Translations under genes and position numbers: made by a program
Notes under the pieces: generated by a model
Database searches by the model: none
What the model saw: only the letters and a program-made list of their open reading frames with translations
Told to the model about the DNA's origin: nothing
Assembly: GCA_030637025.1 (NCBI GenBank)
Contig: DAOVVV010000001.1
Location: forward strand, 1-50,138
Length of the DNA: 50,138 bases
Direction of reading: 5' to 3'
DNA from: Clostridia bacterium
Lineage (GTDB): Bacteria; CBDUZB01; JAGLHV01
Shown here: in pieces, positions 130 to 19,835 of the stretch
How positions within the stretch are numbered: position 1 is the stretch's first letter
Layout of the letters: each line of letters begins with the position of its first letter

Positions 130-471
130 GTTTGCGTCATACATTGTCATAAACGCAAACGGATAAATCCGAAATCCTAATATCTAAATCCTAAACAAAT
201 CCAAAATTCAAAACAAAAAAATAAAGGTAAAATGTGTTTCGAACGATATAGCAAATTTTAGCGAAAATAAGCGTTAAAAAAATAAGCCTGTCTGAGCAAA
301 GCGAGTTGCTTATTTTTAGCTTGTTTTTGCGTGCCCGCAGGGTAAAATTATGCGTCCAGAGAGAAACATATTTTGCCTTTGTTTTCCCTGTTCTAACTCA
401 TGGCTCCTAAATACTATATCGCAAATAGTCATAAACGATGTTTGACTATTCTTAATGCTATATCTACAAAC
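130..471 (+). repeat. Composite structured repeat, copy 1 (168-nt rod core at 218-385)
   Basis: Colinear high-identity match to ~3758-4074 and, for the core, to 19466-19633. Nested inverted repeats with compensatory substitutions between copies. Confidence 0.95.
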
Positions 472-3437: not shown

Positions 3438-3569
3438 TGAAACACCCCCTTATAAGAAAAAATCCGAAATCCTAATATCTAAATCCTAAATCCTCCTTAC
3501 AAACTGGCGGACAGGCAAATCCAAAATTCAAAAAGTTAAATTCAAAACAAAAAAATAAAGAAGCCTTTC

Positions 3570-3592
3570 GGGCGACCAAGGGTCGCCCCTAC
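3570..3592 (-). repeat. GTAG-type REP palindrome
   Basis: Minus strand reads GTAG-GGGCGACC-CTT-GGTCGCCC: a GTAG foot plus a perfect 8-bp GC-rich stem. Confidence 0.8.
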
Positions 3593-3604
3593 ATTAACTC
3601 CCAT

Positions 3605-3657
3605 CTGTTGTCTTTTTTCCGTTGTCTATGGACTATCGACTGTGAACTATGGACTAT
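3605..3657. repeat. 7-nt-period array
   Basis: CTGTTGT-CTTTTTT-CCGTTGT-CTATGGA-CTATCGA-CTGTGAA-CTATGGA-CTAT. Confidence 0.85.
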
Positions 3658-3757
3658 TTTATTTTTGCGTGCCCATAGGGTAAAATTATGCGTTTAGAGA
3701 AAAACATATTTTGCCTTTGTTCTACCCCCCCCTCACAAATAGTCATATACTCACTTC

Positions 3758-4074
3758 GTTCGTGTCATACATTGTCATAAACACAAACAGATAAATCCAA
3801 AATCAAAAATTCAAAACAAAAAAATAAAGGTAAAATATGTTTTGAACGACATAGCGAATTTTAGCGAAAATAAGCGTTAAAAAAATGAGCTTGTCTGAGC
3901 AAAGCGAGTTGCTCATTTTTAGCTTGTTTTTGCGTGCCCGAAGGGTAAAATTTCGCGTCCAGAGAAAAACATGTTTTTCCTTTATTTTCCCTGTTCTAAC
4001 TCATGACTCCAAAATACCCTATTGCAAATAGTCATAAACGATATTTGACTATTCTTAATGCCATACTTACAAAC
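3758..4074 (+). repeat. Composite structured repeat, copy 2 (168-nt rod core at 3821-3988)
   Basis: Core aligns without gaps to 218-385 (offset 3603). Confidence 0.95.
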
Positions 4075-8156: not shown

Positions 8157-8251
8157 AATTTATTTATAGGCTTTTTGTAAATAATGCGGGACAACAGGGT
8201 AAAATTATGGTGTAAGGGGGAAGAATATCTAAAGTTAAACACTTTTTCTCA

Positions 8252-19359: not shown

Positions 19360-19636
19360 ACTAAATCCAAAATCCTAAACCCTCCTTACAGACTGGAGAA
19401 CAGGCAAATTCAAAATTACCGCCTTACAGATTGGCGGACTGTCGCTTTGCTCCAGCAAAACAAAAAAAATGAAGGTAAAATATGTTTTGAACGATATAGC
19501 AAATTTTAGCAAAAACAAGCGTTAAAAAAATAAGCCTGTCTGAGCAAAGCGAGTTGCTTATTTTTAGCTTGTTTTTGCGTGCCCAAAGGGTAAAATTATG
19601 CGTCCAGAGAAAAACATATTTTTCCTTTATTTTCCC
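19360..19636 (+). repeat. Composite structured repeat, copy 3 (168-nt rod core at 19466-19633)
   Basis: Core aligns without gaps to 218-385 (offset 19248). The left flank carries AAATCC heptamers and two CCKCCTTACA mini-hairpins. Confidence 0.95.
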
Positions 19637-19641
19637 CGTCC

Positions 19642-19667
19642 GGGTGAACACAGGGGTTCACCCCTAC
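19642..19667 (-). repeat. GTAG-type REP palindrome (second sequence class)
   Basis: Minus strand reads GTAG-GGGTGAAC-CCCTGT-GTTCACCC with a perfect 8-bp stem. Confidence 0.8.
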
Positions 19668-19699: not shown

Positions 19700-19835
19700 A
19701 ATCCCAATTCCCAATCTCAAAATCCCAAATTTTTTAACTCATATGTCTCTGTTGTCTTTATTCTGTTGTCTTTATTCCGTTGTCTATGGACTATGAACTG
19801 TCGACTATGGACTATCTGTTATCTTTTAACCGTCT
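19700..19835. repeat. 7-nt-period arrays (AATCCCA-type and CTGTTGT/CTATGGA-type)
   Basis: AATCCCA-ATTCCCA-ATCTCAA-AATCCCA (19700-19727); nine in-phase units from 19749: CTGTTGT-CTTTATT-CTGTTGT-CTTTATT-CCGTTGT-CTATGGA-CTATGAA-CTGTCGA-CTATGGA. Confidence 0.85.

Follow-up and report, generated by a model that had tools for sequence, protein, structure and literature searches.

A dispersed rod-shaped repeat of a Clostridia bacterium, paired on one strand only, with an apical head found across phyla

The first 50 kb of C74, a contig in a Clostridia draft genome (G000; 2.36 Mb, 77 contigs, 33.5% G+C, completeness 97.8%), make up the window analysed here (50,138 nucleotides), which carries copies of a rod-shaped repeat in which pairing is kept on one strand only, i.e., changes in its stems are compensated or pass via G·T, and almost never via A·C. 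The element and the superfamily of long hairpins with which it shares an apical head match no catalogue searched; the element is gene-less and probably mobile. We put at about even the chance that it is a non-autonomous, TA-flanked foldback repeat from an uncatalogued cross-phylum superfamily, probably mobile via a single-stranded hairpin formed by one strand, with an orientation linked to replication and not to a function as antisense RNA. The rod would then be a foldback repeat comparable to MITEs or REPINs, and its approximately 50 full copies, halves, arrays, and chimeras in this genome would represent a local expansion of the superfamily.

Copies, ends, and neighbouring modules of the rod element

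Three copies of 168 nt that align without gaps, and a 3' half copy, lie in the window (Table 1), where the preliminary description had placed them, with the half copy extending over the range given in the table. The three-base loop of the side hairpin was described as variable and indeed reads GCA, GAA, and AAA in the full copies and ATA in the half copy. The hairpin module that flanks the rod also has a second copy, in which one pair is altered on both sides (C135:G155 to T3763:A3783), as can be seen by direct reading. The similarity between copies 1 and 2 reaches 283 nt in a repeat finder because the neighbouring repeat modules are common to both as well.

Table 1. Features of the rod element in the window and Y1_Tnp open reading frames (ORFs) elsewhere in the genome
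Feature	Position	Strand	Remark
Rod element, copy 1	218..385	+	core ~220-383, ends TAAAGG...CCTTTA
Rod element, copy 2	3821..3988	+	
Rod element, copy 3	19466..19633	+	
Rod element, 3' half copy	3659..3721	+	model positions 104-166; heptamer-repeat module precedes
Head (apical knob) TGTCTGAGC-AAA-GCGAGTT, copy 1	289..307	+	cross-phylum motif
Head TGTCTGAGCAAAGCGAGTT, copy 2	3892-3910		
Head TGTCTGAGCAAAGCGAGTT, copy 3	19537-19555		
Conserved core	271..325	+	asymmetric internal loop (5' GTTAA / 3' A), strongly covarying 10-bp stem, head
Side hairpin TGCCC-NNA-GGGTA	332..344	+	three-base loop variable
Flanking hairpin module GTTTGCG...CGCAAAC	130..160	+	separate from rod
Flanking hairpin module, second copy	3758-3788		
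Long Y1_Tnp ORF, 318 aa	G000:C6:6441-7397		
Long Y1_Tnp ORF, 332 aa	G000:C26:35953-36951		
Short Y1_Tnp ORF, 182 aa	G000:C73:2041-2589		GTAG-tagged small hairpins on both sides

Several other modules occur near the rod. A tandem heptamer module with GGACTAT- or CTGTTGT-like units adjoins it at 470-537, 3604-3657, and 19748-19815, and copies 1 and 2 have other heptamer-like runs (AAATCCT, AAATCCA, AAATTCA) on their 5' side. Small G+C-rich, REP-like hairpins with a GTAG tag, separate from the rod, are present on the minus strand at 3569-3591 and 19642-19667. Lastly, a stretch of 44 nt at 8185-8228, at the overlap of two ORFs on opposite strands, has 70% identity to the side-hairpin region; this resemblance is probably due to chance.

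The description of the element as dispersed is borne out by the whole genome: a profile built from the three window copies gave 87 nhmmer matches (E up to 1e-5) in the 2.36-Mb assembly, and of these, 42 span the model from position 8 or lower to position 160 or higher; about 48 copies are near-full. The remaining matches are 5' or 3' halves, plus truncations at contig ends. Tandem arrays on contigs C35, C73, and C64 have a unit of ~186 nt with a constant spacer of 22-24 nt; an example with 186-nt units is found at 46840-47321 of C35. Deletion derivatives of the rod are present too, as are chimeric copies in which the inner ~60 nt (head and inner stem) are swapped for a heptamer-repeat segment of 110-125 nt. 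The module inside these chimeras, in the place of the head, has the same GGACTAT / CTGTTGT-like units, and the chimera of heptamer-repeat module and rod 3' half seen in the window recurs elsewhere in the genome.

Alignment of 41 copies with their flanks showed that the element ends in AATAAAGG...CCTTTATT and that the 5' flanks are unrelated from copy to copy; the flanks of many copies consist of other repeat modules. The ends form an inverted repeat with TA outside AAGG...CCTT on each side (TA|AAGG...CCTT|TA), which gives an element of ~164 nt. Inverted ends with TA on both sides are found in nearly all copies, both in this genome and in the second carrier genome described below (G389). TA is itself palindromic, i.e., its own reverse complement, so that a target duplication is indistinguishable from an extension of the inverted repeat.

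The element was found in all three sister species (20-26 matches each), and was absent from all 37 other relative genomes searched. Some copies in the sister species reach 189-191 nt, as their 5' arm contains a nested GTAG-tagged small hairpin. Orthologous intergenic regions differ in module content between G000 and the sister species, and as these regions are mosaics, their comparison yielded no clean empty sites.

Pairing kept on one strand

The plus strand of copy 1 folds with -56.6 kcal/mol (z -7.2, none of 200 shuffles as good), and its minus strand with -33.4 kcal/mol (z -2.7). Covariation was assessed in an alignment (A1) of 43 copies, of which 23 are from this genome and 20 from the three sister species. 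It contains 59 pairs, and 97.5% of the pair cells are standard. The compensatory changes named in the preliminary description are real and were extended to 17 pairs and 94 cells that changed on both sides; as related copies lack independence and many are of common descent, these cells are not counts of events. None of 500 shuffles reached these values (means of 8.1 pairs and 29.1 cells), and in a control where the partners were slid by 1-3 columns, only 1-5 pairs had both-sided changes. The inner stem beside the head is the most variable part, e.g., pairs 92:116 and 93:115 have 19 double changes each.

The strand on which the pairing is kept can be read from the kind of mismatch. Among the consensus pairs of 41 full copies, 235 cells are G:T or T:G vs 20 that are A:C or C:A. 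The same bias was obtained with a fold that forbids G-U pairs and hence treats both strands alike: the 1x1 stem mismatches are G·T in 64 cases, A·C in 4, and other in 26, and G·T exceeds A·C in 32 copies while the opposite holds in 2. Together with the both-sided changes, this upholds the claims that the structure is kept in preference to the sequence and that the fold is specific to the plus strand. The bias has the same direction but less strength outside the genus, namely, G·T vs A·C of 70 vs 39 in 102 hairpins (binomial p 0.004) and 57 vs 24 in G389 (p 0.0003).

Mutation bias was considered as a source of the G·T excess and rejected. The folding strand has a GC skew of +0.20, like the sense strand of genes, and lies on a C-rich host strand with a skew of ~-0.25, so the excess is not the host composition showing through. 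Deamination on the exposed sense strand would be expected to give the opposite pattern.

These data bear on whether the folded molecule is RNA or DNA. An antisense structured ncRNA family would mean that a copy or array is transcribed from the folding strand and that rod and knob act as a functional RNA, e.g., as a protein sponge or RNase III substrate. Such a reading accommodates the tolerance of G·U but not of A·C, the 17 pairs changed on both sides, the sense-like skew of the folding strand, and the tandem arrays, from which multi-unit transcripts would be possible. A near-absolute preference of G·T over A·C is a classic RNA signature, and counts against a DNA reading. The same holds for the fold energies (means of 41 copies): with RNA parameters they are -52.1 for the folding strand and -38.0 for the complement, a gap of 14 kcal/mol that exceeds the one obtained with DNA parameters (-30.9 and -26.4). 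The evidence against transcription comes from the surroundings of the copies and their orientation, and is taken up below.

The head and its rods across phyla

The head was described as invariant. It is present in all three window copies and in 45 places in the genome, but it is not private to this genome: TGTCTGAGC-NNA-GCGAGTT is the 19-20-nt apical knob of an uncatalogued superfamily of long hairpins with unrelated stems. An exact scan with the 18-mer GTCTGAGCAAAGCGAGTT over both strands of one genome per species (GTDB species representatives, 596 Gb) gave at least 110 loci, with ~17 expected by chance arithmetically. Carriers among the matches listed include Marinobacter (many species), Clostridium, Tepidibacter, Lachnospiraceae, Mediterraneibacter, Megasphaera, Bacteroides, Polaribacter, Sphingobacterium, Saccharibacteria, Gracilibacteria, Nitrospirales, Rhodoferax, and Desulfuromonadales. 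The base before the 18-mer is T in 106 of the 107 listed instances that have sufficient flank, and at most listed loci complementary flanks begin directly beside the 20-nt head, forming hairpins of 90-240 nt. In G000 as well as at these loci, the head forms the apical loop of a long hairpin and lies on the better-folding strand, and the stem sequences underneath are unrelated between taxa. A subset of loci (including Clostridium, Tepidibacter, Bacteroides, Polaribacter, Sphingobacterium, and Sulfurimonadaceae) shares with the rod of G000 a local layout, in which a stem of 9-10 bp is followed by an asymmetric internal loop (5' CGTTAA(A/G)AA, 3' TTTAG).

When mismatches were allowed, the variation was located in the mini-loop GC-NNA-GC, with AAA, GAA, GCA, GGA, TAA, GTA, ATA, and ACA, and the third base is A in all heads except two with TTT. 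A degenerate head pattern was found in 21 viral contigs and in 15 of 401 evenly drawn Clostridia genomes, vs none of the 401 for a reversed control. The cross-phylum loci stem from exact-pattern scans, so the family is undercounted and the AAA loop over-represented. In the head, two G-C pairs close the three-base loop, and a tandem G·A/A·G may lie beneath them in the stack. Three-base loops closed by C-G, and tandem G·A in a pyrimidine-GA-purine context, are unusually stable in DNA. Self-cleaving ribozyme, K-turn, tRNA-like, and attC identities are considered improbable, as the head appears to lack their defining features.

That the element belongs to no named family, as first proposed, agrees with the searches. 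Rfam 15 gave no match at gathering score over the whole window, only chance rows far below the gathering score for positions 100-520 (E up to 10), and only generic microRNA-hairpin rows below the gathering score for 20 diverse head loci. The literature, searched by motif strings, variants, and words, returned no account of the element or head, and the available part of a paper on new bacterial RNA motifs does not describe the element. Around the heads in viral and bacterial loci, no shared neighbour family was detected by Pfam among 63 ORFs.

Two further observations were made at the head loci. In several unrelated taxa (L011, L022, L026, L127, L129, L130, L031, and L102), the rod is followed after 30-60 nt on its 3' side by a second hairpin, whose 5' arm is rich in pyrimidines and whose 3' arm is rich in purines (CTTTCTTTTG...CAAAAGAAAG-like); this hairpin may be an additional module under conservation. 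Direct tandem arrays of three heads occur in a Megasphaera record (G043:C1:1854184-1854662, 230-nt period) and in G088 (C1:1755631-1755941, 146-nt period), in parallel to the 186-nt tandem units of G000.

Of the carriers examined, the heaviest is G389, a complete 2.82-Mb Clostridia genome with dnaA and dnaN at its start on the plus strand. It contains 40 heads within one mismatch; its rods of ~262 nt fall into three subfamilies and number about 60 or more, 47 of them in subfamily 1, with ends TATAGGGTTTGTAA...TTACAAACCCTATA or TATAAGGACAAAC...GTTTGTCCTTATA. Copies lie a few bases from stop codons and beside terminators on either side, and no consistent T-run is found on either side of the rods. 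One 262-nt rod is missing at the orthologous site of the congener G446, where the distance between the flanks is 40 nt vs 404 nt in G389; the sites are too diverged for the junction to be read. G446 has 5 weak matches to the subfamily of which G389 holds 47. Rods of subfamily 2 occur as divergent inverted pairs around ~0.8 kb of DNA (L189:2150-2945 = G389:C1:2433750-2434545; also L169 and L168). This DNA has no ORF of more than 88 codons, long internal inverted repeats, and no Rfam match; a larger element in decay and an unknown structured RNA are both conceivable. In Marinobacter, the stems are near-perfect palindromes of which both strands fold alike, and the heads are mostly located after gene ends, often as inverted pairs between convergent genes.

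The location of copies just past stop codons, near terminators, and often between convergent genes in Marinobacter and G389 could point to a cis element that serves the host in RNA, i.e., one that stabilises mRNA 3' ends or acts as a terminator of, or an insulator against, antisense or convergent transcription. Some window copies, with T-runs after the rod on both strands, would fit such a role. However, a terminator scan lists nothing for the rod and only the mini-hairpin of the head at 3896-3915, at the rate of shuffles, and the G389 rods have no such runs consistently. Moreover, the strand present in mRNA would be the weakly folding one, and sister species differ strongly in copy number, which is more in line with a selfish element. 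A host-useful role of this kind is therefore judged improbable.

Orientation, candidate movers, and comparison with known systems

ORFs in G000 were called by a simple greedy rule (1901 ORFs, 88% coding). Among the 53 matches with a coverage of 100 or more model positions, only one is next to an ORF on the folding strand, and on one side only. For the other 52, every known neighbouring ORF is on the opposite strand, on both sides in 34 cases and, with one neighbour known, on that side in 18. The claim that the fold is antisense to all genes, made for the window, thus generalises to the genome, but it is better read as the folding strand being on the leading-strand template, with genes mostly co-directional with replication. 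The gene arrangement in G000 is extreme in general: 1660 of 1824 pairs of adjacent ORFs run in the same direction, a single strand carries >90% of the ORFs in most contigs, the GC skew of contigs is ~±0.25 with a G-rich, purine-rich sense strand, and all long non-overlapped ORFs in the window are on the minus strand.

In the complete genome G389, 45 of the 47 subfamily-1 copies switch strand with the replichore: the folding strand is the minus strand before 1.42 Mb and the plus strand after it, i.e., the leading-strand template. Here the gene on the 3' side is on the opposite strand for 39 of 45 copies; the six that break this gene rule all follow the replichore rule, and of the two copies that break the replichore rule, one follows the gene rule. 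These counts link orientation to replication no less closely than to the neighbouring gene. The folding strand is on the leading-strand template in G389, and probably so in the draft genome G000, for which replication direction is derived from gene direction and skew only.

The same arrangement weighs on the ncRNA reading introduced above. Promoter-like sites are not more frequent than in shuffles, and since the 5' flanks differ between copies, there is no shared external promoter; a transcript with both rod ends would have to begin outside the element. Of the 35 copies that lie between two ORFs, 34 have no neighbour that could provide read-through into the folding strand, which, at the resident sites in G000, is neither the mRNA strand nor served by a shared promoter. 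Together with the G389 orientation, which follows the replichore better than the neighbouring gene, this makes an antisense ncRNA family rather unlikely, despite its fit to the pairing data. Between antisense RNA and a folded single-stranded DNA element, we lean towards mobile single-stranded DNA because of the lack of promoters above shuffles, the differing 5' flanks, and the replichore-following orientation in a complete genome.

In the preferred reading of the rod as a foldback repeat, the folding strand would take up its fold in single-stranded form while the element propagates, with DNA more likely than RNA, and a protein would recognise the knob. The weaker complement would be on the lagging-strand template, the one exposed as single strand. 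Orientation may then reflect a replication-linked filter, by which copies that expose the strong hairpin strand are lost or harmful; the logic of such a filter has reportedly been shown with asymmetric palindromes in E. coli. For the attC sites of large chromosomal integrons, a filter with this logic has been described as well. A counterpoint is that the Marinobacter heads lie on both strands (9 forward, 8 reverse). Alternatively, orientation could arise from replication-coupled insertion. Replication-coupled single-stranded transposons such as IS608 have their active strand on the lagging-strand template, so the polarity would be the opposite of that of the rod.

The preliminary description proposed to look for a co-occurring HUH/RAYT gene as a partner. 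Such a gene does exist in G000, which has three Y1_Tnp ORFs, but none of the three is flanked by the rod. The short one lies between GTAG-tagged small hairpins, a classical REP/RAYT arrangement of a different repeat, and it is this repeat to which the gene belongs; in the rod-rich G389, no match to Y1_Tnp (PF01797) and no homologue of the long Y1 protein was found. Homologues of the long Y1 proteins were found in the head carriers G280 and G041, and not in G389 and G043. The ORF on C6 has a weak DnaA C-terminal-like helix-turn-helix in the Pfam scan, and two copies of a 30-nt hairpin precede the gene on C26. Were the rod REPIN-like, with a REP-associated tyrosine (HUH, Y1) transposase as its mover, hairpin selection on one strand would be accounted for, as such enzymes impose it; carriers in Marinobacter and Megasphaera have Y1_Tnp as well. 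The rod resembles REPIN/RAYT systems in its intergenic dispersed hairpins with tens of copies, compensated stems, one-strand selection, and tandem and chimeric arrangements. It differs from them in lacking a GTAG-type terminal tag, in being much longer (164-270 nt), and in being conserved at the apical loop and not at the stem base. With the RAYT-like gene of G000 flanked by another repeat and the 60 or more rods of G389 lacking such an enzyme, movement by a Y1 transposase of this kind is very improbable.

A second candidate route is that of a TA-duplicating MITE of the IS630/Tc1 type, moved as double-stranded DNA, in which the rod would be a by-product of palindromic origin and the strand asymmetry and orientation a result of nothing but host selection against a strong hairpin in exposed DNA or mRNA. 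TA-duplicating MITEs of the IS630/Tc1-mariner kind include Correia/NEMIS, RUP, and Nezha. The likeness consists of TA-flanked inverted repeats, a rod-like fold, non-coding content, and a location near stop codons or terminators, and one IS630-family gene is present in the sister species G001. This single gene was rejected as the mover, as its ends are unrelated to the rod ends, and DDE_3 (PF13358) has no match in G000, G389, G043, or G088; a partner transposase whose ends equal those of the rod was not found. A transposase that binds terminal repeats would also leave unexplained why the pairing is full-length, on one strand only, and with both-sided changes along the whole rod, why orientation is near-absolute, and why an identical 19-nt tip is found across phyla while the ends vary. 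From Correia/NEMIS, RUP, and Nezha the rod is set apart by their descriptions, not by their sequences. We regard this route as unlikely. An autonomous rod copy in G000 was also looked for and rejected: distant arm pairs enclose host genes, e.g., a pair on C8, 1.2 kb apart, encloses an ordinary host ORF. With no transposase having matching ends, mobility is inferred from the copy number and from one empty site in another genus.

Single-strand systems offer closer parallels for the fold. IS200/IS605 elements and PATEs share with the rod the recognition of a hairpin on one strand and a replication-coupled orientation, but theirs are subterminal hairpins without inverted ends or a full-length rod, their active strand is on the lagging-strand template, and G389 has no Y1_Tnp. 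The attC sites of integrons are likewise imperfect palindromes that act as a folded single strand with one polarity, and according to section 5.1.1 of PMC8946536, their bottom strands are predominantly on the leading-strand template in sedentary chromosomal integrons. They differ in being located in a gene-cassette array beside an integrase, whereas rod copies are dispersed over ~40 contigs, and in being conserved at the stem base with a variable tip, the reverse of the rod.

Most small hairpin repeats can be assigned to a known transposase family; the rod cannot, and its rod-rich carrier G389 has neither of the usual enzyme types (DDE_3, Y1_Tnp). The ends differ by lineage, while the 19-base tip is letter-identical from Gammaproteobacteria to Clostridia, Bacteroidota, candidate-phyla bacteria, and phage-like contigs. 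Tentatively, the knob could be the recognition site of a cross-phylum single-strand system, either a new mode of moving DNA or a conserved host factor, and the rods could form a mobile class of their own, distinct from REPIN/RAYT, IS200/IS605, and IS630 MITEs, with the active hairpin hidden on the leading-strand template. If the rod were an ordinary MITE with a conserved centre, its value would lie mainly in annotation, as such repeats break assemblies and mimic RNA genes. The near-absolute orientation also shows, in a natural case, how long hairpins are tolerated by a genome. If the tip is the recognition site of a protein or enzyme, it would indicate an unrecognised mobilisation system or a universal host interaction, and several of its carriers, namely, Marinobacter, Clostridium, and Megasphaera, are cultivable.
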